IMG/VR virus record: IMGVR_UViG_3300021962_000066
Span: 19,784-83,783 of that record
From: a virus
Strand: one strand, 5' to 3'
DNA: 64,000 nt
Positions 2,504 to 60,220 of this stretch are shown piece after piece; the first letter of the stretch is position 1; every line of letters begins with the position of its first letter. A program made the position numbers and the translations under genes. The notes under the pieces were generated by a model, which was not told the origin of the DNA, ran no database searches, and saw only the letters and a program-made list of their open reading frames with translations.

Positions 2504-2581
2504 TACTTAGTTGACTGATTTTGTTATCTACAATTGATAAAAATATATACTGGCATAAGTAATTACGAATTGTAATATAAT

Positions 2582-3856
2582 ATGGCAACAAGCACATCTA
2601 CGTTCGCTCTTAATATTTCTGCCATTAGGGCATTATGCCTAGGAGTTTCGGGCATTACACCCCCCGGGCTAAAGCATGGGTATGCAGCGCCTACTGTCAC
2701 TGACGGTATATCGGGCGATTTCTTTTTTAATATAGCGTCTCTTTCATCATATCAGTTATATGGTCCGAAGACGACAACTTGGCCGACCTCGGCAATAACG
2801 CTAACAACTTTAAACTATCTCACATCCTATACGAACACTCAACTTAATGGCCTCACAGGTGGTAATACTCTGGCAATAGCGTGCTTACAGGATGGTGGAA
2901 GTTCTGGCTACGGCTTATTGAGCTCACTTAGGATATTGAATCAAGGTGGTGCTGCTGCTAATATAGGTTCACTAAGAATAAATACTAATTCAGGTCCGGG
3001 CATGCAGCTCCCGCATATCATCTGCAGTGCATTTGGTGTTGAAAATTTTATAGTCGATAGTGATGGCTCATTATCAGCTAACAATATTACGACTGATGGT
3101 ACGGTTACAGTAAACCCTAGGTACCAGACAACGGGAGGAGTAAATCGTTTATTCGGTGGCAATATATTCGGTACTAATGAGTGTTTTGTTTCTGCGGAAA
3201 AGGTTAGTATTTCTATCGGTGAGGCTACATCCGCGTACGATGCAAACTGTCTTGTAGGTGGCGGTAATTCGATTGCAACCGGTCAGTATTCATGCGCATT
3301 AGGTTGGGCTAATCAAGCAATTGGCCAGGGAACCTTTATTACCGGTCTTGAATCTAGAGCAGTAGGTAATCTGTCCATAGTACTCGGCGCCTCGGCCGTT
3401 GGTTATCATAGTGGTACTTTTGTCTGGAACGGTGGTCAAGGAGCTAATATTAGCTCGTCCGTATACCCTGTCGTATACGGACGAGCAGGTACATCAGGCC
3501 ACACTCAGGCCGTATTCTACTCTGCCTCTGGTACGCATATCGGTCGTAGACTTAGTGTTAATAATTTTCAAACAGAGACATTTAATATTACCGATCCTGT
3601 GCGTGGAACCACTGAGACTGTGATACTAACCGTTCCTATCACAGGTAGTAATGATGCCACGTTTACTGTTAATGGTACCATATCGTCGAATAACACTACA
3701 ACAGCTACAGGTTACTTCGATGGTAATAACGCACAGTTACTAACAGGCAGACAGACTGCACCGTCACCGTTAGTCGGCGGATCAACACTAAGTGATACAA
3801 TTGCAGCATTTAATTTATTACTGAGTAGTTTAACAGCTCACGGTTTAGTTAGATAA
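2582..3856 (+). CDS. Fibre/adhesin-like virion protein
   Basis: N-terminal G..GDFFFN...YGPK..W fibre module; YadA-head-like repeats (ATGQYSCALG, AIGQGTFITG, AVGNLSIVLG); C-terminal FNLLLSSLTAHGLV resembling head-fibre ends. Confidence 0.65.
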   Translation: MATSTSTFALNISAIRALCLGVSGITPPGLKHGYAAPTVTDGISGDFFFNIASLSSYQLYGPKTTTWPTSAITLTTLNYLTSYTNTQLNGLTGGNTLAIACLQDGGSSGYGLLSSLRILNQGGAAANIGSLRINTNSGPGMQLPHIICSAFGVENFIVDSDGSLSANNITTDGTVTVNPRYQTTGGVNRLFGGNIFGTNECFVSAEKVSISIGEATSAYDANCLVGGGNSIATGQYSCALGWANQAIGQGTFITGLESRAVGNLSIVLGASAVGYHSGTFVWNGGQGANISSSVYPVVYGRAGTSGHTQAVFYSASGTHIGRRLSVNNFQTETFNITDPVRGTTETVILTVPITGSNDATFTVNGTISSNNTTTATGYFDGNNAQLLTGRQTAPSPLVGGSTLSDTIAAFNLLLSSLTAHGLVR

Positions 3857-4461
3857 TGACATCGATGGCGCGATTTACCGATCGCACCCCTACCATAATG
3901 GTTCTGCAAAAATACTCCCGATACGTCAGTTACTTTTAATGGTAGCAGTACTACATCTGCAAAGTTTTTCAAATGTACGAGATCATCATCACTCGCGCAT
4001 TTTCCAATCTCGGGGTATATCTTACAGGTATCTAACCACCACAGCTGAAAGAATCCTAACGCCGTTCTGCCCTCGAATCCATGTTCTACATAATCATTAA
4101 CGCTAGTACCGTCTACTAACGTTCTACTACATCCATATAAAATATCTTTATGTAAGTTAACTAGTTTATCTCTGTAATTAACTGGTAATAAAATATCACT
4201 ATCTAACTGTAGTATCCACCCCGTGTCTTTCAGTCTTTGTATCCCCTCATTAACTGCTTTACCTTTTGCAAAGTTTGCGCCGTTATAATATATGTCTCTA
4301 GATAGAATATATTGTAGCTGATTTTTCTCACATAATTGTATTGTCTTTTTATCAGACTGATGAGTAACGATAATCCAATCGTCTAGTAGATCTCTATTAG
4401 GTAGTGTCTTCTCTAGGTAATCGCTATAGTCTATACATACGGTTACTGCTGATATTTTCAT
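3838..4461 (-). CDS. GT-A fold (GT2-like) glycosyltransferase
   Basis: KGKAVNEG and WILQLDSDI (DxD); ATG at 4461 makes an ATGA overlap with the upstream stop. Confidence 0.8.
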   Translation of the reverse strand: MKISAVTVCIDYSDYLEKTLPNRDLLDDWIIVTHQSDKKTIQLCEKNQLQYILSRDIYYNGANFAKGKAVNEGIQRLKDTGWILQLDSDILLPVNYRDKLVNLHKDILYGCSRTLVDGTSVNDYVEHGFEGRTALGFFQLWWLDTCKIYPEIGKCASDDDLVHLKNFADVVLLPLKVTDVSGVFLQNHYGRGAIGKSRHRCHYLTKP

Positions 4462-5006
4462 AGCCACTCTACAGGAATTCTCTTCTTCGAATAAAATTTT
4501 GATATACCATTGCCCTGTAGGATTCTCATATAGAGCTCATCTGCGTAATTATACGGGAAACAAAACCTATCAGGTACACTGCCTAGTTGTAGCTCAAATG
4601 TATTAATCATATTTACGGTATCCGATAGATACATACGAATCTTTTCAACCATTAATGTATTCTTCCGTAGTTGGAGATGATTATGACCATGACCACCAAT
4701 AAAACATTGAGGAGAATTATATAACGATCTAATCTGTTCCCAGTTCATATAATTACTGACATCGCCTACGCTAAAGAATCGATCATGCGCATCAGTGCAC
4801 GAAACGCAGTCAGAGTTCTGTTGGGTATCTTCTAACGCGACAATGTTAGTTGATATAAAAAAGATCTTTGGTGTGTTTATTTTTAGTAATTCGTTTCGAA
4901 ACTTATACTGAGTATACAATCCATCATCAAAGGTAAGTATATAATTCTGCAGAGGAAGTTTTAAAAACTCTTCCTTCATTTCATGAATCATTAGTACTTG
5001 TTTCAC
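4458..5006 (-). CDS. Polysaccharide deacetylase (NodB/CE4)
   Basis: LTFDDG, MNWEQIR, GHGHNH, FCFPY motifs. Confidence 0.85.
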   Translation of the reverse strand: MKQVLMIHEMKEEFLKLPLQNYILTFDDGLYTQYKFRNELLKINTPKIFFISTNIVALEDTQQNSDCVSCTDAHDRFFSVGDVSNYMNWEQIRSLYNSPQCFIGGHGHNHLQLRKNTLMVEKIRMYLSDTVNMINTFELQLGSVPDRFCFPYNYADELYMRILQGNGISKFYSKKRIPVEWL

Positions 5007-5653
5007 GAAATTGTAAATATAGGTTTAAAGCATTCTGCTTTATCGTATCCACACAGACTTCCGATATAACTGTCGCGGTGAGCAATCATGTCTATACTTA
5101 TAGGGTCAGGTGACTCTCTTAATTCTGTATCGTAGTTTTTAATACATCGAAGTTTTATATTATGTACTGATGTAATATCATTAAAGGTCGTGAACTCCTC
5201 TAATGACTTACCCCATTCGGTACTACCGGGAATCGAAAAACAGAGTAATTCCTTTATAGAGCTATTATATCTCGGTCTAGTAGTAACTCTAACAGCTTCA
5301 TATACGATTCTATGGTCTCTGTGTATATCGTACTGATAGTGCGAATAGATAACTTCAGGTTTATATGAACGTATCTCACTATCAATGTGTGACCGTATAT
5401 CAGCAAACGGGACAGTATCGAGTGAAACGTCGGAGTAATCTAATCTTATAAAATCATCTATGTTTAGTATATTACAGTTTTTTTTTGCGGCCACCTGTCT
5501 GCTTCCTGCAACATGTTCATGCCCTGGTCGATTACCTTTACAGAACGTTAGCAGTCGAATCTTATGACCTTGCTGTTTAAGCTTGGCTACAGTACCGCCC
5601 ATACCAATTTCCATATCATCCAGATGAGCTGTTATAATTAAAATATTTTTCAC
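5003..5653 (-). CDS. PIG-L/LmbE family N-deacetylase
   Basis: AHLDDMEIGMGG, HRDH and C-terminal AECF motifs. Confidence 0.9.
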   Translation of the reverse strand: MKNILIITAHLDDMEIGMGGTVAKLKQQGHKIRLLTFCKGNRPGHEHVAGSRQVAAKKNCNILNIDDFIRLDYSDVSLDTVPFADIRSHIDSEIRSYKPEVIYSHYQYDIHRDHRIVYEAVRVTTRPRYNSSIKELLCFSIPGSTEWGKSLEEFTTFNDITSVHNIKLRCIKNYDTELRESPDPISIDMIAHRDSYIGSLCGYDKAECFKPIFTIS

Positions 5654-6609
5654 GTATAGAAAGATACACCGCTGTTTATAATTTCCTGCATAGAAATTGT
5701 TGGTGTGTAATATTTTCTAAGTTCCAGAATATTAGGTATTCTGTAACCTATATCAATAAAGTCGTTTTTAAATGAATTACTCAGATCAGAATATACAATT
5801 TCTGATTTACTATTTACAGCCTTTAAAACGCTATTTGCTAATTGATTAATCGTTGTAATGTTATTGGGGTTGCCTATGTTGTATATATTCCCGTAACATG
5901 ACTCCGTACAACTAAGAATATACAATGCATTAATAGTGTCTCTAACATCGCAAAACGATCTAGACTGTTCACCGGTGCCGTATACCTCAATCGGCTTATT
6001 ACGTAGTGAGGCTTCAATAAAATTCGGTAAAACAGCGCCGCCCTTACTGCATTGACCGTACCCTGTCACATTAAATGGTCTTACTATTATAGACGGGGTA
6101 TCGTAACTCCTTAAAAGAAATTCCGATGTCAGTTTACATGACGAGTAACACCATCTACTTGTTCTGGAGGTTCCAATTGTAAGATTGTCAGACTCCACAC
6201 AATTAGTTGAACTACCATATATCTCACTCGTACTGGTGTATATAATCCTCTTATTAGACTTGGCAGCTGCCTCGAATACATTTGCATTTATATTGAGTAT
6301 GCTTTTAATTGCATGATTTGGGTTATTGTCTACAGTTCTAACTCCTACTGTTGATGCAAAGTGATATATAGTATCTTGATCTTTAAAAAAAGAATTGAGG
6401 GTTGTAGCAGACGTTTTAGACAGGTCGACTTTAATAATCTTATACCGATTACGAGCGTGGGACGTCTCCATTAATGTCTGTGATATCAACTTACTACGAT
6501 GCCCTATATTATCTAATATTGTAATATAGTCAGTACCCTCTGTCAGTAGCTTTTTGAGTAAGGAGGCGCCTATAAAACCTAATCCACCTGTTATTAGTAC
6601 TTTTTTCAT
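5650..6609 (-). CDS. NAD-dependent NDP-sugar epimerase/dehydratase/decarboxylase (extended SDR)
   Basis: TGGLGFIG, TSTSEIYG, RWCYSSCK (YxxxK), RPFNVTG, QSRSFCDV; resembles ArnA/UXS-type decarboxylase domains. Confidence 0.88.
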   Translation of the reverse strand: MKKVLITGGLGFIGASLLKKLLTEGTDYITILDNIGHRSKLISQTLMETSHARNRYKIIKVDLSKTSATTLNSFFKDQDTIYHFASTVGVRTVDNNPNHAIKSILNINANVFEAAAKSNKRIIYTSTSEIYGSSTNCVESDNLTIGTSRTSRWCYSSCKLTSEFLLRSYDTPSIIVRPFNVTGYGQCSKGGAVLPNFIEASLRNKPIEVYGTGEQSRSFCDVRDTINALYILSCTESCYGNIYNIGNPNNITTINQLANSVLKAVNSKSEIVYSDLSNSFKNDFIDIGYRIPNILELRKYYTPTISMQEIINSGVSFYT

Positions 6610-6612
6610 ATG

Positions 6613-7209
6613 TCAGCAAAATAACTCCTTTATATCTCTGATAGAGTTTGACTGCAACGATGTATAGTCTATAGTGGACTCAATACTGTGTAAACTGTTT
6701 ATTGTTTGACTAATGAAACTATCAATAGTAATATAACTTATAATATTAGACATATCACTGTCACTCACTAAATTTTGTCGTATTTTACGCATTAAACCCT
6801 TTGTTCTATGGGTACCATACACTCGCGGTATTCGTAATATCATATACTTATTGTAACGCTTTTTAATGTAAACCTCCATAGCGAACTTACACGATTCATA
6901 AAGATTTGTAATCTTATTAACTCCCTCCGTACTAGCAAATATAAATGTAGCATGATTCTCTATTGCAATATTCAATAGATTGTCTGTACCTATAACAATA
7001 GTGCTAACTGTTCGCTCTATATCTTTAAATTCAAATGTATCGCTAGGAGAGGCTAAATGCATGACCATGTCAATATTACTATATTGACGTCGATCTCTAA
7101 CATCGCCTTCATACTCCACCACGGTATAGATAGCGGAGAGTGCCGGTATAAGCGATGAGCCTAAAAAGCCTTTACTGCCTGTTATTAGTATGCGAGGTTT
7201 TCCATTCAC
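6613..7209 (-). CDS. Short NAD-dependent epimerase/reductase (SDR)
   Basis: TGSKGFLG, HLAS, YESCK, RIPRVYG; only 198 aa. Confidence 0.75.
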   Translation of the reverse strand: MNGKPRILITGSKGFLGSSLIPALSAIYTVVEYEGDVRDRRQYSNIDMVMHLASPSDTFEFKDIERTVSTIVIGTDNLLNIAIENHATFIFASTEGVNKITNLYESCKFAMEVYIKKRYNKYMILRIPRVYGTHRTKGLMRKIRQNLVSDSDMSNIISYITIDSFISQTINSLHSIESTIDYTSLQSNSIRDIKELFC

Positions 7210-7675
7210 AATTATCCCAACCGAGTCTTATGAGACTTGGTTCCTTTCCTCTGATGCAGTTAGTAAGCGTACTCAGAAATGATTGACGATCGTGAGGTTC
7301 ATGTAGAGGTATGCCCAGCGCTGCCATAAGTTGCGCGTCATCGTCTAATATATGACCCTTACCGCCGGCTTTATAACAACCGTTAGCACCTGCGTTAATA
7401 AACGTAACGCTTCTACCGAAGTTTACAACACTGAACTTTATCTGTTCGTATCCGCGGTGTATTACAAACCCTGCAACCCCATACACTATAACTGACTTAC
7501 CTTGACTAGCTAGCCCACCAGCAATGTTCACAAGGTTCGTCTCCTGCACTCCTACATTTATACAACGCTCTGGAAACCGCGACTTAAATCGCTTAAAGCT
7601 CCACATATCTGCATGTAAGAAATACAGATTCGGATTATTGTATTTACTAAGAAATTTGTCTAAGGTATTTCTCAT
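7172..7675 (-). CDS. Transketolase pyrimidine-binding subunit (no C-terminal domain)
   Basis: LHADM, FPERCINVGVQETNLVNIAGGLA, RGYEQIK. Confidence 0.85.
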   Translation of the reverse strand: MRNTLDKFLSKYNNPNLYFLHADMWSFKRFKSRFPERCINVGVQETNLVNIAGGLASQGKSVIVYGVAGFVIHRGYEQIKFSVVNFGRSVTFINAGANGCYKAGGKGHILDDDAQLMAALGIPLHEPHDRQSFLSTLTNCIRGKEPSLIRLGWDNCEWKTSHTNNRQ

Positions 7676-8360
7676 CTACTTTTTTATAATGCCAGGTTAT
7701 AGGGTCTGCTTCCATAAATGGGACACCGTACCCTTTAATAGTCTTACAAAAGAATACAGTCGGTTTACCGTATTCAGCTCTAAACTCTTTATTGAGCTTA
7801 AGGTAATCATGCCCGTCAACGACAGTAGTAGCCCACCCATTATTGCTAAAGAAGTTAATTACCGGCTCTATAGGTAGAATGTCGCACACTTTACCTGTAA
7901 CCTGTTGGTTGTTGTAATCTACAGTAACAACTATATTTGCCAATTTCTTATGACCGATATACTGTATAGCCTCTAGAGTGCTGCCCATCTGCAATGTAGC
8001 ATCAGAGAGATTGACCCACACTTTCTGAGATGTTGTCATAGCAATGCCACTTGCAACACCTAGAGCATTCCCCATCGTCTCTTCACCGAAATCAACAAAG
8101 TCTATTTCAGCGTGTTTAACTCCAGGAGATAGATTCTCTATATGCTTGATATAGTTAAGTCTTTTCCAGATTAGATAATAGGTTTGTGAACCAAATGGCT
8201 TACCTAGAACGATTTTGTGCTTATATGGTACAACATGCTTCTCTGTAAACAGAACATCCACATAAGTGAGCATAGATAGAGCTGACGGTATGTGCGTCAG
8301 CTGCTGCTTGATAGAATACTGTAAAACAGTATTTGGTAAAATAGGATCAACTATATCCAT
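7647..8360 (-). CDS. Transketolase N-terminal (ThDP-binding) subunit, divergent
   Basis: HIPSALS, MGNALGVASGIA, SDATLQMG (in place of GDGE..EG), VDYN, VDGHD, TIKGYGVPFME..WH. Confidence 0.85.
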   Translation of the reverse strand: MDIVDPILPNTVLQYSIKQQLTHIPSALSMLTYVDVLFTEKHVVPYKHKIVLGKPFGSQTYYLIWKRLNYIKHIENLSPGVKHAEIDFVDFGEETMGNALGVASGIAMTTSQKVWVNLSDATLQMGSTLEAIQYIGHKKLANIVVTVDYNNQQVTGKVCDILPIEPVINFFSNNGWATTVVDGHDYLKLNKEFRAEYGKPTVFFCKTIKGYGVPFMEADPITWHYKKVDEKYLRQIS

Positions 8361-9606
8361 AATCTTTTAACCATATAGGATATGGTGTACCCCTCAAGAC
8401 ATCAAGTTCTCGTGCTGCTATTTCTACGAGATTCCTAGGACTAGGTTCCTTTACACCTAGCCCTGTTAATAAACTATTCCAACTCCATTCATCAAATATA
8501 GCAGACTCTGAATATAAGTTAACATCCATCTGTTTATACTGATCCCAATACTCATTACTTCTTTTTGCGTATTTATAGTGTGCTAGTATAAAACTAACTA
8601 TCGAATTGTATTCCTTATTGATCGTACGGTTATATTCATCTGCTGTAATCTTCTCTTCAATATAGTCGCATAATAGCTCAATACTGAACACACTCATAAA
8701 CAGACTAGTACTTTCCATCGGCTCGACAAAGCTTGATGATAGACCTACGGCAGCAACTGGCGGCACTCCTTCAACTATATGTGTCTCACATCTACCAGTT
8801 GCGAACTTAATTTTTTTAATCTTACTCTCATCTATCTTACTGACAGTAGATTGCTCTATAAAGTCTATAAATTCCTGTCGCACGTTGAAATTATCTGAAT
8901 GCACATATCCAAATGTCATCTCGTTTCGTAAAAACAAGTTCCATATCCACCCATATTTCATAGCGGTTGCAATTGAATAGGGTCGTATTTGATTTAGGGA
9001 GTTAGTATAACGGTGTCTATAAATGTAGGCAGAGTTGTTAGGAATTAACTGCTCTATAGATACAAAGTTATTATCAGGCTCTACTGCTCTGAGAATAGTC
9101 TTTGACAGGCCTGTACAATCTACTACAAGATCTGCAGTACTCTTCACATCATTAAAGCTAACTTCCTTTTTTATAATAGAGAGATTTTTATAAACCTGCA
9201 ATTTAGATTCTATTAGAGTTGTTAGAAGGTTAACATTAAAGTGGAATCCTATATTACTCTCCGGATGTAAAACGCCAGCTGTTACACGTTGCTGTCTGCA
9301 ATGCTCATCATACGACGGAAATGCATGGAAAAACTTATCTCTTACACCGGAAAACTCATCAAATCTAAATCCAAATTTTATAGTACCGTTACAATGATCG
9401 AGAATGTCTTCTGACGATATACCTATTTTTCTTAGAAAAATATGTACGTCAGGTACAGTTGCTTCGCCTACACCTATAGGGTTATTAACCTCCGGGTATA
9501 TCCATCTGATGCTCTTATCTGGAAATGCTTTACATAAAAATGCAACCGCTAGGTAGCCTGCTGTACCAGCACCGACAACAGTTAGGTTTTTATACTCTCG
9601 GATCAT
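8347..9606 (-). CDS. Flavin-dependent tryptophan-halogenase family protein
   Basis: VVGAGTAG, IGVGEAT, GTIKFG (PrnA K79 equivalent), VDCTG, GWIWNL, FVEPMEST. Confidence 0.85.
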   Translation of the reverse strand: MIREYKNLTVVGAGTAGYLAVAFLCKAFPDKSIRWIYPEVNNPIGVGEATVPDVHIFLRKIGISSEDILDHCNGTIKFGFRFDEFSGVRDKFFHAFPSYDEHCRQQRVTAGVLHPESNIGFHFNVNLLTTLIESKLQVYKNLSIIKKEVSFNDVKSTADLVVDCTGLSKTILRAVEPDNNFVSIEQLIPNNSAYIYRHRYTNSLNQIRPYSIATAMKYGWIWNLFLRNEMTFGYVHSDNFNVRQEFIDFIEQSTVSKIDESKIKKIKFATGRCETHIVEGVPPVAAVGLSSSFVEPMESTSLFMSVFSIELLCDYIEEKITADEYNRTINKEYNSIVSFILAHYKYAKRSNEYWDQYKQMDVNLYSESAIFDEWSWNSLLTGLGVKEPSPRNLVEIAARELDVLRGTPYPIWLKDYGYS

Positions 9607-10574: not shown

Positions 10575-11488
10575 AACCTCTCCTTATAGTATGAGTATTT
10601 TATATCACAGCAGCATCCTGTTTCTACATCGCAAATAACCTGCTTATCAATATTACTTCCGAGAGGCGTCATAGGTGTATGAGTACAGTGGTTTACTATT
10701 CGACCATCTGTCTTTATATACCACATTAACGGTGTGCATCGAAAACCCTTAAAAAATCTTAAGCCATGTTTTTGTATGTCATACTCATTTAAATTAGTCA
10801 TCTTACCGTTGATATTAAACGGGATATTACCTGTAATACTTTTAGGATTTTCTGCAATTACTGTTTTAAATGTTTCAAAAAACTTGTCAGTATATTTAGG
10901 AGACCAGCCTGCTCTCGTTGGAATTAGAAAATTAAACCCAACTGCAACACCTCGCTCTTTTAAGGTATTAATGAGACTGATAGTGCCTTCCCAATGCTCC
11001 TCAGTGTCTGACAGATTTATATTAGGAAAAATAGTTATATGCTTTGCATCTTTTATAGCAATACACTTATCTATAAAGACTGGCTTAAAGTATTCGGGAT
11101 GGTAAGAGGGTGTTATTTGCAGCTTATTACACTCAGGTATATCAAATTGCTGATAATATTCTAATGATCTAGAAAAATTTGTAACAAGTTCTATCTTAAG
11201 ACAATTTTTAATTGCATTTAGTCCCTTTACAATTTCAACCAAATCTGGATGCAATGTAGGTTCCCCGCCTAGCAACTCAACGTTAAACTTAGGTATGCGG
11301 TTAAGCGACAACTGCTTTACGACCTGTTTATACGACTGCAGCTTAGTAGTATCAATCTGCTTCTTCAAAAAGTGCTCTGCACTACAATACGAGCACCTGT
11401 AATTACACACGTCAACAAGGTCCCACGAAAATGTAACCAGCTTACAATTGGGGTCGCCAGCATGCTTAACGTCGTCTATTGTCATCAC
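10571..11488 (-). CDS. Radical SAM protein (twitch/SPASM-like C-terminus)
   Basis: CNYRCSYC, GGEPTLHP, SYHPE, FKGFRC..DG..C..CCCD. Confidence 0.92.
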   Translation of the reverse strand: MMTIDDVKHAGDPNCKLVTFSWDLVDVCNYRCSYCSAEHFLKKQIDTTKLQSYKQVVKQLSLNRIPKFNVELLGGEPTLHPDLVEIVKGLNAIKNCLKIELVTNFSRSLEYYQQFDIPECNKLQITPSYHPEYFKPVFIDKCIAIKDAKHITIFPNINLSDTEEHWEGTISLINTLKERGVAVGFNFLIPTRAGWSPKYTDKFFETFKTVIAENPKSITGNIPFNINGKMTNLNEYDIQKHGLRFFKGFRCTPLMWYIKTDGRIVNHCTHTPMTPLGSNIDKQVICDVETGCCCDIKYSYYKERL

Positions 11489-11495
11489 TTATTAC

Positions 11496-12467
11496 TTATT
11501 GAGTTTCCGAGTTATTCAATAATACTACTTTTTCTTTAAAAATCTTTAACAAGCCGTCACAATTGCAGCTACCGTGTGGGCATTTGACAGGCGTAATTGC
11601 TGTAATCTTTTTAAAGTAAAACGGGTCAGTTACAAGATTAACAGGTTGATCAAAGCATACTCTATGAACGACACCATCGTATGAGATCTCGTAATTATTA
11701 TTCCAGCAACTCCATCCCTTGAACCCCGTTAGTTCACGTTTAAAGAGATTGTAGTCATTGTACATAACCTTATCGCCCTTAACATCTTCAAAGGTGAAGT
11801 AGTTAGGATATGCGTTAAATCGTTTAAACTCATTATAAAATTCTTCGCTATAGTTCTCAGGCACATGTACGTCGCCGTTAGCATATAGGAAGTGTGGGTG
11901 TATCTCGATACCGCTCATCTCTTCAAGACTATCTACAAATTTATGAATCTTAGGCCATAATTCCTTTTTTGGATTTAGCATTACATTCACCTTACATCTA
12001 AACCCCTTGTCCTTAATAACTCTAATATTGTCCAGTAACCGTTTAAAGTCTTCTCCGTATTTGGATTCGTATTCAGTATGGAAACTCCACAAGAAGTACA
12101 TGTTGTTATAGTACTTGTGCTTTCTAAAAAAATCCGTATCTTTGGATCCATTTGTAGTAATATACAATCTACCGTCCGGGTGTTTAGAAATAGCAGCATG
12201 ACAGCCTTCTATTAACTCCTCGTAGCGAGGGTGGAGAGTAGGCTCTCCGCCTAAGAGACCCAAGAACACTGGTAGGGTTGCTCTACCGATACTGTTGATG
12301 ACTAGTTGCTGCTTATCCCACCTATCTATCCTGCCCCACTCATCGCCATACTCCTTCATCGCATAACAATATGAACATTTAAAGTTACACTGGGTACTTA
12401 CATCCCAATGAATATATAGTCGTTGTACCTTATGACCGGAGTCATATTGCTTGATAAAATCTGTCAT
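11496..12467 (-). CDS. Radical SAM protein (twitch/SPASM-like C-terminus)
   Basis: CNFKCSYC, GGEPTLHP, TNGS, SFHTE, FKGWSC..DG..C..CPHGSCNCD. Confidence 0.92.
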   Translation of the reverse strand: MTDFIKQYDSGHKVQRLYIHWDVSTQCNFKCSYCYAMKEYGDEWGRIDRWDKQQLVINSIGRATLPVFLGLLGGEPTLHPRYEELIEGCHAAISKHPDGRLYITTNGSKDTDFFRKHKYYNNMYFLWSFHTEYESKYGEDFKRLLDNIRVIKDKGFRCKVNVMLNPKKELWPKIHKFVDSLEEMSGIEIHPHFLYANGDVHVPENYSEEFYNEFKRFNAYPNYFTFEDVKGDKVMYNDYNLFKRELTGFKGWSCWNNNYEISYDGVVHRVCFDQPVNLVTDPFYFKKITAITPVKCPHGSCNCDGLLKIFKEKVVLLNNSETQ

Positions 12468-13101
12468 CTTTATTATAGGTATAGAAACTTATATTATCAC
12501 CACCGCTTGTGGTCTGTACCCAGCGCTCACCAATAATATACTTAATAGTTGCCGGTTGAAGGGAATGGAAAAGCTCTATGTCGTTATTAATATTATTACC
12601 GACCGGAAACGACTTAATTAATGATTTTCTGAACAGTATCTGACCGAGTTGAAAGTCACGTGGGGTATATTCTTTCAGGAATTTCGATAAGTCAGTCACT
12701 TCAAATAAATGTCGGTTTGACTTAGTGACACGCTTATATGCACAATAAGGCCCGATCTCAGCTATCAGCGGTTCCGAGACATATTCCAGATAGTTAACAT
12801 CCGACTCGAAGTCTAAATTATCAAAGAAGTTTCTTTTTATGTAGTCATCATCTTCTAAGAAATACACGAACTCACATAGGGACTGATCAAACAGAAACCT
12901 ATATAAATTGGAAAGGTCACTATCTCGTTTGTAGTGATATGATATAGGTATTGCAGTATTATAAATTTCGTCGATATCATTAGAGTCGTTGTTTACTATG
13001 ACTTCGACACCGGGCGGCACTTTGCAGGCTAATATACTTTCAATACACCGCTTAAACAGCTTTGGTCTATTGTGGGTTAATATTAAAATGCTAAGTTTCA
13101 T
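12442..13101 (-). CDS. GT2 family glycosyltransferase
   Basis: LSILILTHNRPKLFKRCIESIL, VIVNND, YFLEDDD. Confidence 0.88.
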   Translation of the reverse strand: MKLSILILTHNRPKLFKRCIESILACKVPPGVEVIVNNDSNDIDEIYNTAIPISYHYKRDSDLSNLYRFLFDQSLCEFVYFLEDDDYIKRNFFDNLDFESDVNYLEYVSEPLIAEIGPYCAYKRVTKSNRHLFEVTDLSKFLKEYTPRDFQLGQILFRKSLIKSFPVGNNINNDIELFHSLQPATIKYIIGERWVQTTSGGDNISFYTYNKDDRFYQAI

Positions 13102-14105
13102 TTTCTATATTTTACGTGATCGAGGCCATCATAGCATGTAGTATTGATGCAAACTACATCTGACTTCAAGAATGCATTAACATCAATATCGGCTAAGTTT
13201 GCCCCGCGTATTTGTTTATTATAGTCATCATTACAGTGATAAACCTGTAAAGTATGGTCAATAACTATATTCTTTTTGCCACACTCACACCACATATGTT
13301 TAAATTTCGTATGTATTTTGCTAGCCTTTACCTCGCTGTAGTTTTTCACAGTACCATCAATATTAAAGTTCCAGCCTTCTTCGAAATATTCTTTAAAGTG
13401 TGGATATTTTCTGGTAAAGTATCTATACTCTAAACTCTTACCATTATCATCTCCTCTTAAATAGTCATCAGTTAGGTGCACCTTATAATCTGGTAAGTTG
13501 AGAAAAGTTAAATTTTCTATCTCAGTAAATTTCAGCTTTATCTTGCCGGGGAATCTACTATTTAAAAGATTAAACTCAGATAGAAATTGATCCTCTCTAC
13601 CGATTTCTGTACTAAAGAAGCACAACCCCATAGCATTGTATTTGTTGCTTAGATACAGTTTTTTTGAAAACTCATCGACCGACTGCTTACCTATATGATA
13701 GCTACTGCAAATGTCAATTTTTGCCGTACAGGTAGTAGCTGTTTGTAGAAATACCTCTAAACGGTCATAAGCAATACTTAAATTTGTCTGGGTTTGTAGG
13801 AAGAGTTCTCTATCGGAAAATATCTTTATAAGTTCAAAGTGTAAATGTTCCCAATATCTGCTTAGCGTTGGCTCTCCGCCATAGAAGTAGAAAAACAACC
13901 GCCTTTTGCTCACGGGTATTTGAGACAGTTTAGAAATTACTGCTGCACAGTCTGCCTCAGACCACTGCGTAGACGTGTTGTTATACTCATTACAGAACCA
14001 GCATGCGTGATTACACTTGAATGATGGTTTTAAAGTGACTTTCAGATCATACTCAGGGAATTGAGCAGTCTTTATTATCTCAAACTTATGTATTAAAGCA
14101 GACAT
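13098..14105 (-). CDS. Radical SAM protein (twitch/SPASM-like C-terminus)
   Basis: CNHACWFC, YGGEPTL, QTNLS, SSYH, C-terminal CECG..C..C..CYDG. Confidence 0.92.
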   Translation of the reverse strand: MSALIHKFEIIKTAQFPEYDLKVTLKPSFKCNHACWFCNEYNNTSTQWSEADCAAVISKLSQIPVSKRRLFFYFYGGEPTLSRYWEHLHFELIKIFSDRELFLQTQTNLSIAYDRLEVFLQTATTCTAKIDICSSYHIGKQSVDEFSKKLYLSNKYNAMGLCFFSTEIGREDQFLSEFNLLNSRFPGKIKLKFTEIENLTFLNLPDYKVHLTDDYLRGDDNGKSLEYRYFTRKYPHFKEYFEEGWNFNIDGTVKNYSEVKASKIHTKFKHMWCECGKKNIVIDHTLQVYHCNDDYNKQIRGANLADIDVNAFLKSDVVCINTTCYDGLDHVKYRK

Positions 14106-15045
14106 TCTGTATAATATTAATTATGCTATCATCGCTCTGAAGCGATACCGAACTAATGTCTGTGTCTATATCAAGCTTTCGATATTTTAACCCGGTGTCT
14201 ATATTTAAATATGCCTCGTCGATGTTATAATAGATAACATCTTTACCGTAATGCTTACACTCAGCAATAAATCTCGGGCTACAGTCGAACATTGTAGTCG
14301 TCGGAGTATATATGTATGTTGAAAACTTACTAAACAGATCTAAAACAGGTGCAGATAGAAAACTAACCTCAGTAATATGCTTAAACTTATCGGTGTATGC
14401 TTCAGGGAATGATGTTATAGCTATAAATTTTTTAAATTGAGGGTAAAGTTGAGACATCTGACAAAGGATTTCGTCAGATATGGCTCTACAGTTCTTAGTA
14501 CAGTATAGTAATGCAGTATCGACCTCTGCTGATACTGCAGACTTAAGCTTAGAGAAGAGTATTTTTTTCCTGTAGTCTATTGCAATATTAATATCTTTTG
14601 GCGTGCATTTATATACCCGGTTATCCTGTAATAGGGTTATATTATTATACCGCAGGTCATGAAACGTATCTAAACGTGAACACTTAAACGCCAACACGTT
14701 ATCGAATATTAGTTTTACACCGAAGTGTTGAAAGTTTCTATTTAAGCCGCCATCAACGAAGAGAATATTCTTGCCCTTTAATATTTTTGGTCTAGATGCA
14801 AAGTAAGTATTATTCCTTATATCGCTAACCTCTCTGCTTGTTACATTATACTTATCAGTAATGATTGACTCAATTTCACTCCAAGTGAAGTCTTCTCCTA
14901 TGAATATGCCAGTTTTATATCGCTGTGAAAGTATGAAGTAGTAGTCAAAAATTTCATAAATATGCCCGCATATTCCGTGATTATTGTCAGGAGGCCAGGT
15001 AACTGATAAAAATATATCATAGTTTGCATCTAATACTTTAATCAT
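14086..15045 (-). CDS. Hypothetical cluster protein, possibly a GT-B-like glycosyltransferase
   Basis: FDCSPRFIAECKHYGK resembles the GT-B 'P....EA...G' segment; overlaps both neighbours. Confidence 0.45.
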   Translation of the reverse strand: MIKVLDANYDIFLSVTWPPDNNHGICGHIYEIFDYYFILSQRYKTGIFIGEDFTWSEIESIITDKYNVTSREVSDIRNNTYFASRPKILKGKNILFVDGGLNRNFQHFGVKLIFDNVLAFKCSRLDTFHDLRYNNITLLQDNRVYKCTPKDINIAIDYRKKILFSKLKSAVSAEVDTALLYCTKNCRAISDEILCQMSQLYPQFKKFIAITSFPEAYTDKFKHITEVSFLSAPVLDLFSKFSTYIYTPTTTMFDCSPRFIAECKHYGKDVIYYNIDEAYLNIDTGLKYRKLDIDTDISSVSLQSDDSIINIIQNVCFNT

Positions 15046-16072
15046 ACATACCGGATCTATAGAAGTTAACTCGTCTTATCTTCTTGCCCGAGACGGGGTA
15101 TACCGGTGCATCTAGCTTCTTTTCAATCCCGTCACAAATATAGTAAAATTTACAGGTAATACAACTGTTAGGCTTTTTATAATCATTTGATCGATCTTTT
15201 GCAGCAACATCATGCGCTATTAAAATCTTCTCATTCTCAGTATACGCTTTAGATACATCTAGCGTACCACTATACATCTCTTTATTCCAATCATACCTAT
15301 CGTATATGTGTTGATACTGATTACATACGTACTTTTCGTAGCCAATCATATAGCAATACGGGGTATATCGGACATTAATAGTCTTTATATCGTCTTTTAT
15401 AATGTCGATACACTTCTTAATATGGGTTGTGAGGGTTAAATAGTCAGCCTGTTCAAAATTTTTATTATCCTCCCAATAGTTAAGAGTAAGAAAATTAATC
15501 TCAAGAGGCTTAATTGATAATAGAAGCTTACTGTACTCTTCCAACCCTTCGCAGTTCTTTTGATAAACTGTGCAATTTATTCTGACAATAATTTTATGTT
15601 TTTTAGCATTGTCGATTGCTTGGAGTATCTTAATATAAGAACCCTTTCTATCAGTAATCTGATCGTGTACCTGTTCGTTAAATCCATGGAGACTAAATAG
15701 TATCTCTTTTAGTCCGTGTTCTTTCGATTTCTTAAGAAAGGCTTCATTAGCAAATTTATAGCCGTTACTAAGACAGCTAATATGTTCAAATCTTTGATTA
15801 CAGTAATCTAGGAGCTCAAACCAATCTTTATGTACACTTGACTCACCACCTGAAAGATCGACCTCAGTAATACCATATCGGTGTAGATAATCGACCCTGT
15901 CCTTAATTACCGATAGTGGGGTATTTACATCAAGACGGTCCTTATAGTAGCAAAACTCGCAATTATAATTGCAGAGTGTACCTGTATCTAATTTTGCTCT
16001 GTTACACCGTTTTGTATCAAAATCTATATCTATGCCGTGAGTACTAATGACGTTAAGATTCATTGCAAACAA
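15038..16072 (-). CDS. Radical SAM protein with C-terminal CxxCxxxxxC (second subtype)
   Basis: CNYNCEFC, SGGESS, SNG, FSLHG, RYTPYCYM, CITCKFYYICDG. Confidence 0.92.
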   Translation of the reverse strand: MFAMNLNVISTHGIDIDFDTKRCNRAKLDTGTLCNYNCEFCYYKDRLDVNTPLSVIKDRVDYLHRYGITEVDLSGGESSVHKDWFELLDYCNQRFEHISCLSNGYKFANEAFLKKSKEHGLKEILFSLHGFNEQVHDQITDRKGSYIKILQAIDNAKKHKIIVRINCTVYQKNCEGLEEYSKLLLSIKPLEINFLTLNYWEDNKNFEQADYLTLTTHIKKCIDIIKDDIKTINVRYTPYCYMIGYEKYVCNQYQHIYDRYDWNKEMYSGTLDVSKAYTENEKILIAHDVAAKDRSNDYKKPNSCITCKFYYICDGIEKKLDAPVYPVSGKKIRRVNFYRSGMYD

Positions 16073-16766
16073 AATCCGGGGCAGGCAATAAAAGCGAAGG
16101 CCAGAATGAGGTTAATGCTTTAACGGTTTTGAATTGGGTTAGATCAACTTCTTGAGGCACATCTCGAAACATTTGCTTGATTATAGCTATATCAGCAATA
16201 TCGCTCGACAATGAACTAGTCAATGTCTCCTTCTCTAGGTTATCTAACTCCTGTAGATTCTTATTTCGATGCTCACGTATTAACTTCATCCAGCCTACTC
16301 GACACTGATTTAAAGTAGTCTCGTCAACTGATTCACCCTCTATATCTCGCTTATCATCTATGCCTAGATGCTTGCAGAGTATTAGCGGGGTTCTGTAAGC
16401 ATTCGGATTTGTTCCGAATATATGATTAAACGTATCAATCTGAAATAATCCGGTGTATAGCTTAGCCTCAGTATACCACCTAGTGAAGATCTGTTCGCTC
16501 TTTTCGAAAAATTCAGGGGATTGTTTAGAGTAGAATTTAGCTATGTCCTCACCGAGTAGAGGTACGGTTTGACCACATGACATAAGTATACCGATATTAT
16601 CACTATTGACCTCCACCTCACGCTGTAAAATTTCATCAAAAAATCCGTTATTTGAGTTGTTGCCCTTCTTGACGTATATAAAGCGCTCTATATGGTTAGT
16701 TCGAACACCAATGACGCAGTGGGTATTATCATTAACGCCTCTTGCCCAGTTATGAATTGTATGCAT
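16053..16766 (-). CDS. Protein with C-terminal phage tail/fibre assembly chaperone-like domain
   Basis: IREHRNKNLQELD...KQMFRDVPQ...WP follows the R..RN.LL..D / RQ.LRD.P / WP pattern of tail assembly chaperones. Confidence 0.55.
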   Translation of the reverse strand: MHTIHNWARGVNDNTHCVIGVRTNHIERFIYVKKGNNSNNGFFDEILQREVEVNSDNIGILMSCGQTVPLLGEDIAKFYSKQSPEFFEKSEQIFTRWYTEAKLYTGLFQIDTFNHIFGTNPNAYRTPLILCKHLGIDDKRDIEGESVDETTLNQCRVGWMKLIREHRNKNLQELDNLEKETLTSSLSSDIADIAIIKQMFRDVPQEVDLTQFKTVKALTSFWPSLLLPAPDFVCNES

Positions 16767-16769
16767 ATA

Positions 16770-17348: not shown

Positions 17349-17374
17349 ATTTTAATTATGTATTATTATATTGA

Positions 17375-18259: not shown

Positions 18260-18268
18260 ATATATAGA

Positions 18269-21256: not shown

Positions 21257-21269
21257 AGTACTTTAATAC

Positions 21270-59251: not shown

Positions 59252-59294
59252 CAGGATAAATATATTGCTAAAGCATAAATATTTCAAGAATAAT

Positions 59295-60218: not shown

Positions 60219-60220
60219 TT

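Follow-up and report, generated by a model that had tools for sequence, protein, structure and literature searches.

What is the function of a dense block of radical SAM, sugar-nucleotide and glycosyltransferase genes lying downstream of baseplate genes in a phage? The question is raised by a window of 64,000 nt (positions 19,784 to 83,783 of the IMG/VR virus record IMGVR_UViG_3300021962_000066, which represents about 40 % of a genome), for which a late-expressed pathway decorating virion proteins, possibly with a halogenated modification, had been proposed.

Extent and gene content of the cassette

The cassette comprises 17 minus-strand genes, running from 17348 down to 3838. The original prediction had delimited the unit at 3838–16766, and the ORF listing confirmed the 16 co-directional genes of that block, all on the minus strand; its content held, although the unit begins one gene earlier, with p192. 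The genes, preceded by the structural run upstream of them, are as follows.

17375–25746, minus strand: co-directional structural run (context only) encoding gp25-like, gp6-like, PKD, 995-aa and 294-aa proteins
16770–17348, minus strand: p192, small Cys-free Ser/Thr/Ala-rich protein of the f24 family (hhalign), at the cassette head
16053–16766, minus strand: hypB, f23 family, with an N-terminal part without assignment, a conserved acidic helix and WPxLLLPxP (phrog_20196)
15038–16072, minus strand: rS1, best-conserved radical SAM (PF04055, 1e-21; CNYNCEFC at residue 34); 47 % identity to CP220 gp163
14086–15045, minus strand: hypA, predicted GT-B fold glycosyltransferase (AF2 pLDDT 94.5; Foldseek), constant partner of rS1
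13098–14105, minus strand: rS2, radical SAM (PF04055, 30.1 bits, cut-off 29.5; CNHACWFC at residue 31)
12442–13101, minus strand: GT2b, GT-A (family 2) glycosyltransferase (PF00535, 25.5 bits, cut-off 23.3)
11496–12467, minus strand: rS3, radical SAM with twitch-type matches (PF04055, 5e-13; CNFKCSYC at residue 27)
10571–11488, minus strand: rS4, radical SAM (PF04055, 1e-10; CNYRCSYC at residue 28)
9603–10574, minus strand: rS5, radical SAM (CNYDCYYC; weak NCBIfam radical SAM C-terminal matches)
8347–9606, minus strand: compact (419 aa) halogenase-family flavin-dependent protein (PF04820, Trp_halogenase, 3e-56); 37 % identity to CP21_168
7647–8360, minus strand: TKn, ThDP-binding half of a split transketolase-like enzyme (PF00456, Transketolase_N, 46.8 bits); 31 % identity to CP220 gp072
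7172–7675, minus strand: TKpyr, pyrimidine-binding half, without the C-terminal transketolase domain (PF02779, Transket_pyr, 27.6 bits, cut-off 27); 33 % identity to CP220 gp141
6613–7209, minus strand: SDR2s, short (198 aa) extended-SDR Rossmann protein (PF01370, 4e-10); 29 % identity to CP220 gp012
5650–6609, minus strand: SDR1, UDP-glucuronate decarboxylase/4-epimerase/ArnA-like SDR (PF01370, 6e-38)
5003–5653, minus strand: PIG-L/LmbE family de-N-acetylase, BshB1-like (PF02585, 92.7 bits; BshB1 1e-20, below cut-off)
4458–5006, minus strand: NodB-type polysaccharide deacetylase (PF01522, 25.5 bits, cut-off 23.1); 28 % identity to CP220 gp156
3838–4467, minus strand: GT2a, putative GT-A glycosyltransferase, final operon gene (PF00535, 21.3 bits, below the 23.3 cut-off)

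Overlaps account for 13 of the 15 junctions inside the 16-ORF block; at the other two the genes are separated by 3 and 7 nt. The GTGA/ATGA stop/start overlaps reported at 5006, 5653, 9606 and 13101 were all recovered; at 4461 the TGA of the preceding gene shares letters with an ATG, and this ATG, rather than GTG 4467, is the probable start of GT2a. As had been noted, the gene 5' of the first radical SAM gene overlaps it (hypB and rS1 share 20 nt) and no evident terminator hairpin interrupts the run, terminator-like sites numbering 10 against 9.1 expected, with none in the intergenic gaps of the run. Upstream, the gp25-like and gp6-like proteins match PHROGs (baseplate wedge) and the PKD protein matches Pfam; the 995-, 294- and 192-aa proteins are without any family match. 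TAAGTA does lie 7 nt before ATG 11485, which, with ATAAGTA just 5', is probably the start of rS4, and ATAAGTA is position-enriched (8 of 21 copies lie within 40 nt upstream of a start, against 0.5 expected); its description as a late-type signal is nevertheless unsupported. The T4-type TATAAATA occurs at four starts, one being that of the sheath gene, and all four lie outside the cluster and do not adjoin it.

The predicted enzyme inventory, namely five radical SAM proteins, a halogenase-family flavoprotein, a split transketolase, two SDRs, PIG-L and NodB, was confirmed. The earlier estimate of two to three glycosyltransferases stands for the two GT2 genes and is extended by hypA, which had been missed: this protein has no Pfam or NCBIfam match, and its Foldseek PDB matches are GT-B enzymes (BshA, MshA, PimA, HepE, PglA and OGT). 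GT2a, probably a GT-A glycosyltransferase, has one clear homolog (47 %), in L020. SDR1 matches the NCBIfam UDP-4-keto-pentose/UDP-xylose synthase model at 3e-31 (below cut-off) and, in the PDB, 8vr2, UXS1 and ArnA. The halogenase-family protein matches Trp halogenases (3e-38) and VirX1 (1e-28) in the PDB and retains the Lys of TIKFG as well as FVEPMEST, while WxWxIP is altered to WIWNLF; a halogenated product is unsupported, as its sole basis is the family membership of a compact enzyme with this altered motif.

A script search for CxxxCxxC returned the five radical SAM proteins, four of which pass PF04055. In rS5 the motif sits 5' of the first ATG, in a frame that has no ATG, GTG or TTG ahead of it, and an ATA following AAGGAG overlaps the preceding TAA (ATAA); judging by these letters, the start is probably this non-canonical ATA. 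The C-terminal CxxCxxxxxC of rS1 is SPASM-like, and C304, C307 and C313 are invariant in 19 sequences. The closest solved relatives of the radical SAM proteins, SkfB in the case of rS1, match in the common core only and indicate no substrate; the rS3 matches to HpnH, viperin and N_Twi_rSAM are each far under their own cut-offs. CxxxCxxC begins at residues 23–34 in the five proteins, which leaves too little space ahead of it for an N-terminal RRE domain.

Conservation and genomic setting

The cassette is conserved and probably mobile; it is not unique to this phage and is not contaminating host DNA. Relatives of rS1 number 553 at E<=1e-10, and 60 viral contigs combine rS1 with the partners seen here, in a comparable order. 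Within flanks of up to 10 kb, and with near-duplicates counted, these 60 loci include hypA (58, adjoining rS1), GT2b (41), rS3 (38), TKn (38) and TKpyr (33), and more rarely SDR2s (25), the halogenase-family gene (24), SDR1 (18), PIG-L (14) and NodB (11). The concern that the block might be chimeric host DNA is excluded by these syntenic loci and by independent runs that tile the stretch without joints. It occurs in phages of marine, estuarine and lake origin, as well as in Campylobacter phages and in predatory bacteria. Bdellovibrio-like predators carry a chromosomal variant, which in Peredibacter adjoins respiratory genes; in Campylobacter Firehammervirus phages the homologs are dispersed across the genomes. 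In the window's record 18 ORFs match CP220, 10 of them inside the cluster, and rS1 is more conserved than every core gene. Relatives also encode a DegT aminotransferase and a second GT-B paralog; UDP-glucose dehydrogenase (f9) is present in 21 of 33 Type B loci.

The proposed attachment to the baseplate operon proved frequent in relatives but not constant. Of the 12 Type A loci, 5 have a fibre-type gene immediately upstream and 6 have non-structural upstream genes; among the 13 Type B loci examined, a fibre-type gene takes this position in 12. The cassette is ~58 kb away from gp25/gp6 in a relative that is 88 % complete, and in G001 it does not adjoin structural genes. Scattered homologs, envisaged as an argument against the structural link, thus occur in Campylobacter phages, but most relatives examined are fibre-linked. 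This adjacency may reflect inherited synteny or the hypervariable fibre region known in T4-like phages (relevant sections of PMC7029224), and the counted loci are therefore not independent.

Small non-enzymatic proteins

Every version of the cassette includes a small non-enzymatic protein, which is p192/f24 here and a Cys-repeat fibre-like protein with S74 elsewhere. The f24 alignment matches p192 in hhalign with a probability of 96.2 % (E 2e-9, 130 columns), against 0.05 % for the control p294, and 10 of 12 Type A loci have f24 ahead of their hypB-like gene. p192/f24 has zero cysteines and p192 no recognised virion-protein family in PHROGs; its AF2 model is poor (pLDDT 56), with a beta-sandwich only at residues 83–188 (pLDDT 70–85). 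hypB, always immediately 5' of rS1 in Type A cassettes, matches f23 members and the L019/L021 equivalents over residues 150–233 (blastp).

In 20 of 33 Type B loci the fibre-like f11 is embedded among the radical SAM genes, with (CTCNCNY)x4 or (CxCNxx)x4 immediately ahead of an S74 chaperone domain; 25 of 25 such Cys-repeat proteins hold 10–33 Cys. CP220 gp140, adjoining the TKpyr homolog, carries f11-type heptads, and an f11-like gene lies within the Peredibacter cassette. The heptad repeat was not found in the window's record or in five Type A records, nor a Cys-dense stretch in the window's record or G001; the window's record, at about 40 % of the genome, also yielded no Cys-repeat protein, Ugd or aminotransferase.

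Possible targets of the pathway

The explanation that we tentatively prefer, with somewhat less than an even chance of being correct, is that the cassette proteins work in the cytoplasm to build and tailor a glycan on a dedicated fibre-like protein, p192 being the candidate acceptor here. The presence of a fibre-like or S/T-rich small protein in the cassettes fits a virion-protein target, and the proposal of a phage-borne pathway decorating virion proteins survives in that the set is coherent, conserved and rich in sugar-nucleotide and glycosyl-transfer enzymes, although late timing and halogenation are unsupported. We infer each of the chemical steps, the acceptor and the timing. SDR1 would process a UDP-uronic or UDP-hexose precursor; the split ThDP enzyme may then move a two-carbon unit onto a keto-sugar, the halogenase-family flavoenzyme, whose gene lies beside or between the transketolase halves, possibly working on the same intermediate. 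hypA would form a GlcNAc-type glycoside for de-N-acetylation by the PIG-L enzyme, following the logic of BshA/BshB, MshA/MshB or BtrM/BtrD, and NodB might strip a second acyl group. The GT2 enzymes would extend the glycan, and the five radical SAM enzymes, whose short N-termini and C-terminal cysteine clusters resemble BtrN/anSME, could oxidise, epimerise or cross-link the sugar or acceptor, with hypB as a putative non-enzymatic adaptor.

The pairing of a GT-B enzyme with a PIG-L de-N-acetylase is that of BshA/BshB, MshA/MshB and BtrM/BtrD, and its presence, together with the twitch/BtrN-like layout, the DegT aminotransferase and amidinotransferase-like genes of Type B cassettes and CP220, and the solubility of every cassette protein, is what a free small-molecule pathway would predict. 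Its product, an amino-sugar or pseudo-oligosaccharide-like metabolite (aminoglycoside-, nucleoside-antibiotic- or low-molecular-weight-thiol-like), would hit host physiology or competitors, the small proteins being bystanders, and three such genes are termed 'antibiotic synthesis genes' in the relevant passage of PMC12801897. This is rather unlikely, as the 16 proteins yielded no match to a cyclitol/inosose synthase, Cys ligase or exporter, the cassette is often linked to fibre genes, and three to four glycosyltransferases and a conserved fibre-like non-enzyme would be left unexplained. Host nucleotide sugars could instead be diverted or altered, changing LPS, capsule or flagellar glycans, for example in a superinfection block. 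SDR1 is ArnA/UXS-like and NodB presumably belongs to the ArnD fold family, and the reading matches that of glycosyltransferases in a pelagimyophage host-recognition cluster, where the relevant sections of PMC7029224 describe cassettes of glycosyltransferases, UDP-glucose dehydrogenase and radical SAM in a fibre-containing hypervariable region and propose O-chain modification. Envelope remodelling is nonetheless unlikely: no membrane-bound transferase, flippase, polymerase or ligase was seen, TM-like segments number 0 in 16 cassette proteins (the families are nearly TM-free), the Cys-repeat and f24 proteins lack a role, and the range of phages and predatory bacteria disfavours dependence on a single-host envelope pathway.

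Maturation of a RiPP-like kind, in which the main activity is that of the radical SAM enzymes, cross-linking a Cys-rich fibre protein through thioether or carbon–carbon bonds while the sugar enzymes play a minor part, would account for the Cys-repeat S74 proteins amid radical SAM genes (including CP220 gp140 and Peredibacter), the SPASM-like cysteines of rS1 and its relation to SkfB. It appears unlikely, since the weak NCBIfam matches to PapB, AlbA and HxsC are far under cut-offs, p192/f24 is Cys-free, the heptads and Cys-dense stretches are missing as described, and space for an RRE domain is lacking. Phage glycosyltransferases are reportedly able to decorate DNA with diverse glycans, and hypermodification of phage DNA, with sugars placed on modified bases, would fit the CP220 SDR/PIG-L/NodB trio adjoining ThyX, the rS1 homolog adjoining thymidine kinase, and the QueC, amidotransferase and further glycosyltransferase encoded in the window. 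It is very improbable: QueC occurs in 2 of 10 long cassette-bearing records and 0 of 3 that are 100 % complete, so that the cassette is independent of 7-deazaguanine genes, a TGT/DpdA Pfam match was not found in the window's record, the cassette lies near fibre and not replication genes here and in most relatives, and neither the small dedicated protein nor the S74 fibre-like protein has a role in DNA modification.

Literature searches agree with the initial statement that no characterised pathway has such a composition. Papers of 2010, 2020 and 2025 saw parts of the cassette and none defined it; homologous gene sets had already been printed for CP220/CPt10 (PMC2853527) and are noted for pelagimyophages in the relevant sections of PMC7029224.

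Operon layout and integrity of the assembly

The source record (83.8 kb, linear, an IMG/VR virus with an estimated completeness of 40 %) is that of a T4-like myovirus, with recognisable genes that include a clamp loader and a dUTPase as well as the structural genes listed here with the main features of the cassette.

3838–16766, minus strand, cluster of 16 genes
9603–10574, minus strand, radical SAM gene rS5
14086–15045, minus strand, hypA, predicted GT-B fold
15038–16072, minus strand, radical SAM gene rS1
16053–16766, minus strand, hypB
16770–17348, minus strand, p192, small protein
23447–25746, gp6-like and gp25-like wedge proteins
33032–34624, tape-measure-like protein
39130–41472, tail sheath
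42156–44969, large terminase

The original prediction of a co-directional cluster of 16 genes was borne out by the ORF listing, Pfam, NCBIfam and a motif script: all 16 ORFs lie on the minus strand, neighbouring ORFs overlap at 13 of the 15 junctions, and no gap exceeds 7 nt. The cluster was also extended, since p192, the gene before hypB, is a homologue of f24, an ORF family of related cassettes (hhalign 96.2 %, E 2e-9, compared with 0.05 % for the control p294, a 294-aa neighbour); 17348 and 3838 are therefore the limits of the conserved unit, which gains one gene over the first description. Within positions 2048–3856, a xanthine/hypoxanthine phosphoribosyltransferase-like gene is found at 2048–2503, and the Campylobacter phage CP220 also has a phosphoribosyltransferase. 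Convergent with the cassette is the gene for a 424-aa protein with a weak YadA-like match; it shares 19 nt with the last cassette gene. The 937-aa terminase matches its PHROG in two separated blocks, and an insertion is possible because the CP220 terminase carries an intein.

Megablast of the cluster against deposited phages returned no match, and no relative was found when viral contigs were queried with the halogenase sequence alone. DNA of the cluster is present in 22 sequencing runs from 12 studies labelled marine, estuary, aquatic, freshwater or lake, with at least half of the sampled cluster words occurring in seven runs, three of which may be the source. Contigs of the runs X4, X5 and X6, all shorter than 1 kb, cover positions 2500–22000 at 99 % or better; no joints appear, and the loose ends are of adapter type only. 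The X4 and X5 pieces are identical and probably represent one duplicated data set. At this length, neither the p192/hypB junction nor the cluster-end junctions are spanned by at least 31 letters on each side. The tiling contigs, which do not amount to long-range proof, show no sign of the chimerism with host DNA that would have undermined the prediction, and the 60 syntenic loci described below are the stronger argument.

The motif ATAAGTA occurs within 40 nt upstream of eight starts in the window (sites at 2555, 11493, 27732, 35392, 38458, 44970, 48402 and 48426), against 0.5 expected, and ranks second in positional enrichment among 60 6-mers of the same composition. As a simple over-represented word it was rejected (21 copies against 28.8 expected), the enrichment being in position only. 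The label of a late-type promoter initially given to it was dropped. The T4-late-like TATAAATA instead precedes the sheath gene and three others; the two motifs may mark two promoter classes. Scans for sigma-70-like and terminator-like elements gave counts no higher than in shuffled sequences.

Enzymes of the cassette

The CxxxCxxC motif is present in five cluster proteins (rS1–rS5), where the script located it at residues 23–34, and four of the five pass PF04055, as expected of members of the radical SAM superfamily. The remaining protein, rS5, carries the motif, yet its ATG-truncated form has no Pfam match; the motif lies upstream of any ATG, GTG or TTG, and to judge from the sequence the most likely start is an ATA that comes after AAGGAG and shares letters with the upstream stop TAA, in an ATAA stop-start overlap. 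Three SPASM-like cysteines of rS1 (C304, C307 and C313) are invariant in an alignment with 18 relatives, while PF13186 is matched by no window protein and the N_Twi_rSAM matches of window proteins reach 16–36 bits against a cut-off of 170. The closest solved proteins, namely SkfB, viperin-like enzymes, BlsE, MoaA and PqqE, share the common core only.

Although hypA matches no sequence family in Pfam or NCBIfam, it is a GT-B glycosyltransferase by predicted fold. Its model (pLDDT 94.5) adopts the GT-B fold, and almost every one of the 50 best Foldseek matches in the PDB is a GT-B enzyme (E 6e-5 to 2e-3; TM 0.31–0.55, two non-GT matches excepted), examples being BshA, MshA, PimA, HepE, PglA and OGT. 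The two family-2 glycosyltransferase genes lie one above and one below the family cut-off. The two SDRs comprise a short protein of 198 aa and the full-length SDR1, which is closest to UDP-glucuronate decarboxylase/ArnA (108.6 bits in NCBIfam against a cut-off of 294) and has 8vr2, UXS1, a UDP-GlcA 4-epimerase and ArnA as its nearest solved relatives. PIG-L belongs to PF02585 (92.7 bits against a cut-off of 28.2) and is closest to BshB1 without being an equivalog (74 against 182.5 bits), and the NodB deacetylase was confirmed in Pfam and NCBIfam.

The flavoprotein Hal is a member of the Trp-halogenase family (PF04820, 191.6 bits, 3e-56) and, when aligned with solved enzymes, keeps the catalytic Lys (TIKFG) and the Glu motif FVEPMEST, with WIWNLF in place of WxWxIP. 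It is approximately 100 aa shorter, its alignment ending near residue 360, and the C-terminal substrate module is absent. The transketolase halves TKn and TKpyr are separate genes that both exceed their Pfam cut-offs, the Pyr half barely (27.6 against 27), and Pfam finds no C-terminal transketolase domain in the pair. Where the Hal gene is present (24 loci), it mostly lies between TKn and TKpyr; in the window it stands just before both.

Conservation, architectures and neighbourhood

The best-conserved gene is rS1, with 553 relatives at E≤1e-10; among the matches listed, one is 89 % identical and the other 119 are 56–65 % identical. An alignment of rS1 and 18 relatives retrieved 60 viral loci, across which the cassette gene order is similar. 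By local tblastn (E≤1e-6, 10-kb flanks, near-duplicates included), the partners found in these 60 loci are hypA (58), GT2b (41), rS3 (38), TKn (38), rS4-like (34), TKpyr (33), the short SDR (25), halogenase-like (24), SDR1 (18), PIG-L (14) and NodB (11), and none of the window's structural proteins appears in the same flanks at the same threshold. The cassette is real, widespread and conserved rather than accidental. Clustering of the ORFs of 45 loci, 15 near-duplicates having been removed, distinguishes two architectures, Type A in 12 loci and Type B in 33.

Gene order in the two cassette architectures (f-numbers are ORF families)
Type A (window-like): f24, f23, rS1, hypA, more radical SAM genes, GT2b, radical SAM genes, TKn, TKpyr, SDR, PIG-L, NodB
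Type B, start: short UDP-glucose dehydrogenase f9; two radical SAM genes f6 and small protein f16 or f29
Type B, next: radical SAM gene f14 and small protein f20; f11; f3; f13/f19
Type B, then: hypA, rS1, GT2b, more radical SAM genes
Type B, end: TKn, halogenase-like gene, TKpyr; SDRs, PIG-L, NodB

Certain Type B variants add three SPASM-type radical SAM genes, a DegT aminotransferase and an amidinotransferase-like protein, and the number of radical SAM genes per locus ranges from 1 to 10 (median 7). The family f13/f19 is a distant hypA paralogue and a second GT-B (92.6 %, E 4e-7). The window's record, which covers about 40 % of the genome, contains no Ugd, DegT, amidinotransferase, f11 or other Type B families.

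In hypB, which belongs to no family, an acidic helix followed by WPxLLLPxP is the sole conserved feature; its last 80 residues match f23 and the equivalent genes in two further loci (L019 and L021), and profile comparison of hypB/f23 with f3 revealed no relation. Small size, a lack of cysteine and a richness in Gly, Ser, Thr and Asn characterise the p192/f24 proteins. The p192 model (pLDDT 56) is too poor for a fold search, and the complex prediction for p192 with hypB (score 0.01, mark 0.32) is neutral either way. The non-enzymatic Type B counterpart f11, present in 20 of the 33 loci, has 170–308 aa and 10–33 cysteines, with repeats of the form (CTCNCNY)x4 in 17 of 25 members and (CxCNxx)x4 in eight. 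Repeats of both types immediately precede SDxRLK, with which a Peptidase_S74 intramolecular chaperone domain begins; such a domain is typical of phage fibres and spikes. A pattern search detected the Cys heptad in none of five Type A records, and Cys-dense stretches are absent from the window's record and from G001, a relative record that is 88 % complete. Of the new leads, the most useful is the connection of the cassette with a fibre-like protein of its own.

A tail fibre gene is found upstream of the cassette in five of the 12 Type A loci (E down to 6e-40), directly upstream of f24/f23 in L012, L014 and L018 and shortly before the hypB-like gene in L019 and L021; six loci have a non-structural upstream set (UvsY-like, homing-endonuclease-like, a cytidylyltransferase fusion and unknowns), and one is at an edge. 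Among the 13 Type B loci examined, 12 have immediately before the cassette a protein of variable length ending in a phrog_22593 domain, and ten of these 12 proteins also match phrog_19602, named tail fibre protein. In G001, whose gp6 is 44 % identical, the cassette lies approximately 58 kb from gp25/gp6/PKD. Fibre linkage is frequent, not constant, and the counts do not represent independent events because the loci share descent. T4-like marine phages are described, in the available part of the source, as gathering accessory genes in the fibre region (PMC7029224). A cytidylyltransferase fusion of the G001-type loci (f36; L010 4696–6693), located upstream of the cassette, is a 665-aa protein that joins the domain to phrog_455; it could activate a sugar or polyol, and CP220 gp026 has a similar nucleotidyltransferase domain.

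Among deposited phages, tblastn places rS1 homologues almost exclusively in Campylobacter group II phages, which account for 15 of the 18 records (46–50 % identity), and the best halogenase match is CP21_168 (about 36 %). At 1e-5, 18 ORFs of the window's record match the CP220 genome, of which ten are cluster genes, and the identity of rS1 to its CP220 homologue (47 %) exceeds that of the sheath C-terminus (42 %) and of every replication gene. In CP220, SDR, PIG-L and NodB adjoin ThyX, the rS1 homologue adjoins thymidine kinase, the transketolase halves are approximately 94 kb apart, and a block at 70.7–79.3 kb comprises five to six radical SAM genes, an amidinotransferase and two glycosyltransferases. 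Adjoining the TKpyr homologue is gp140 (160932–162536; L008 10932–12536), annotated only as hypothetical with a 21-bp 'repetitive region x.1-x.6', which contains six to seven C[TL]C[DN]CNY heptads, the heptad seen also in f11 proteins of uncultured phages, and further CxC[ND] motifs.

The Type B cassette also resides in full in the chromosomes of Peredibacter sp. HCB2-198, two Halobacteriovorax and one Bdellovibrionales MAG (L080–L083). In Peredibacter (L080 4460–21020) it adjoins cytochrome genes, not phage genes, and includes a Cys-rich, f11-like protein with SDKRLK at its end. Among MAGs, two short contigs with the labels archaeon and Neomarinimicrobiota resemble Type A phage contigs. Looser tandem arrays of rS1-like genes with 20–33 % identity were also observed: arrays of up to ten genes in Parcubacteria, Saccharibacteria, Micrarchaeia and Myxococcota contigs, and arrays of five to ten genes in L086, L087, L092, L096 and other genome contigs, from Micrarchaeia, a Pseudomonadales MAG, Parcubacteria and Saccharibacteria.

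Candidate functions and known systems

What the analysis provides is gene content, folds, conservation and linkage, from which we infer the chemistry, the acceptor and the timing. The reading to which we give most weight, plausible if somewhat short of an even chance, is a cytoplasmic glycan-building and tailoring system that acts on the cassette's own small protein. The SDRs would process a UDP-sugar, joined by Ugd in relatives, and the split ThDP enzyme would move a two-carbon unit in a step coupled to the flavoenzyme. The GT-B enzyme would add a GlcNAc-type sugar, followed by de-N-acetylation by PIG-L, while NodB would deacylate, the GT2 enzymes would extend, and the radical SAM enzymes would tailor the sugar or the acceptor. 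The decoration system originally proposed is partly supported, the cassette being real and conserved; the late-type label was dropped. A more specific and rather doubtful version is a fibre-maturation machine common to phages and predatory bacteria, in which a small, fibre-like trimeric protein would be remodelled chemically by the radical SAM enzymes and glycosyltransferases, through cross-linking and through attachment of an unusual branched, possibly halogenated amino sugar; most lineages would offer the Cys-heptad S74 protein as the target, the window the Cys-free p192/f24.

The release of a free small molecule seems unlikely as the purpose of the cassette. GT-B and PIG-L enzymes are paired in bacillithiol (BshA/BshB), mycothiol (MshA/MshB) and butirosin (BtrM/BtrD, with BtrN) biosynthesis, which the window resembles in the hypA fold (close to BshA, MshA and PimA), in the BshB1-like PIG-L and in the twitch-like radical SAM layout. 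These pathways differ from the window in having a Cys ligase or an inositol or 2-deoxy-scyllo-inosose synthase, and the window scores fall far under the equivalog cut-offs; of a BtrM/BtrD/BtrN-type pathway, GT-B, PIG-L and twitch-like radical SAM components are present, but neither Pfam nor NCBIfam finds a cyclitol-forming enzyme (2-deoxy-scyllo-inosose or inositol-phosphate synthase) among the 16 proteins. Remodelling of the host envelope is less probable still. It corresponds to the interpretation of the host recognition cluster of pelagimyophages and cyanomyophages as a means of host O-chain modification (Zaragoza-Solas 2020, PMC7029224, in its available part). As none of the 16 cluster proteins has a TM-like segment, the present pathway appears to be soluble; the cassette families in relatives are almost all TM-free, and the predicted proteins include neither the membrane steps of O-antigen or capsule assembly nor an exporter. 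Either product would still make the cassette a large, conserved, uncharacterised auxiliary pathway.

RiPP-like cross-linking as the main activity, to which the SPASM-like cysteines and the Cys repeats of f11 are relevant, is improbable: the proteins do not fall among maturases of the sacti- or ranthipeptide type, there being no room for an RRE (PqqD-like) domain, because the cluster motif already lies at residues 23–34, and no Cys-rich ORF in the window's record. Hypermodification of DNA is the least credible alternative. CP220 DNA is fully ADG-modified, and the available part of that report gives its other radical SAM enzymes no role (10.1101/2023.04.13.536721). QueC is present in the window, and a tie of the cassette to 7-deazaguanine modification was dropped with QueC in two of ten long cassette-bearing records and in none of the three complete ones. 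At 57945–61583, QueC itself (Pfam 9e-62; 32 % identical to CP220 QueC) stands beside a class-II glutamine amidotransferase (58610–59287) and a Glyco_tranf_2_5 protein (57945–58613), which suggests a 7-deazaguanine DNA modification pathway like that of CP220; the TGT/DpdA Pfam model has no match in the source record.

If fibres are decorated by the cassette, an uncharacterised chemistry would underlie host recognition by many aquatic myophages and Campylobacter biocontrol phages, perhaps also by Bdellovibrio-like predators, and approximately ten uncharacterised radical SAM types would become available to enzymologists in a tractable context. Were fibre maturation true, the specificity of receptor-binding or adhesive tips would be set by enzymatic chemistry in addition to sequence, and the cassette would be the first instance of radical SAM enzymes maturing a virion protein after translation.

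The occurrence of radical SAM genes in phages has been a puzzle ever since the CP220 and CPt10 genomes of 2010. In the parts of these papers available, the 11–12 radical SAM genes of both phages were called highly unusual, and a five-gene radical SAM module with an amidinotransferase was presumed to give general, non-essential metabolic help (Timms 2010, PMC2853527); radical SAM and carbohydrate enzymes were again remarked as unusual (Carvalho 2012, PMC3322345), and three such genes have been termed antibiotic synthesis genes (PMC12801897). No paper was found, supplements excepted, that defines the cassette, its function, its GT-B partner, the Cys-heptad protein or the occurrence in predatory bacteria. 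The hypervariable region of pelagimyophages and cyanomyophages similarly combines tail fibres, glycosyltransferases, UDP-glucose dehydrogenase and 'cassettes related to radical SAM proteins', but the available part of that paper does not define the cassette, its gene order or its GT-B, transketolase, halogenase and small-protein parts (PMC7029224).

Mycobacteriophage virion glycosylation parallels the proposed system in that glycosyltransferases encoded by a phage act, in the cytoplasm, on structural proteins of that phage; those systems, as described in the accessible text, target the C-termini of capsid and tail-tube proteins and use one or two glycosyltransferases, without radical SAM, transketolase, halogenase or deacetylase genes (Freeman et al. 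2023, PMC12619734). The cyanophage flavin-dependent halogenase VirX1 (PDB 6qgm) is likewise encoded by a phage and belongs to the Trp-halogenase family (E 1e-28), but it has 531 aa against 419 in Hal, which is without the C-terminal substrate module, reads WIWNLF at the WxWxIP position and, unlike VirX1, is embedded between or next to transketolase halves. Mosaic adhesive trimer (MAT) fibres are phage-fibre-like trimeric adhesins of Bdellovibrio-like predators (PMC10769870, PMC13147790), the bacterial group in which the Type B cassette, together with a Cys-rich protein of S74 type, is chromosomal; the available parts of the literature were not found to link MAT proteins to radical SAM or sugar enzymes.

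The nearest named counterparts are the Firehammervirus phages of Campylobacter group II (CP220, CPt10, CP21 and IBB_35), in which, at 27–47 % identity, CP220 has homologues of rS1, hypA, the transketolase halves, both SDRs, PIG-L, NodB and other radical SAM genes, and CP21 has one of the halogenase; the order SDR, PIG-L, NodB recurs there, and a Cys-heptad protein (gp140) is present. They are only distant relatives, with core genes 25–42 % identical, and their genes are dispersed over approximately 150 kb among replication and structural genes, whereas the window joins the radical SAM genes and their sugar-enzyme partners in a single operon. A scattered gene list thereby becomes a defined and widely distributed cassette: rS1 and the GT-B enzyme form its core, accessory modules add to this, and one protein is a candidate for its substrate.
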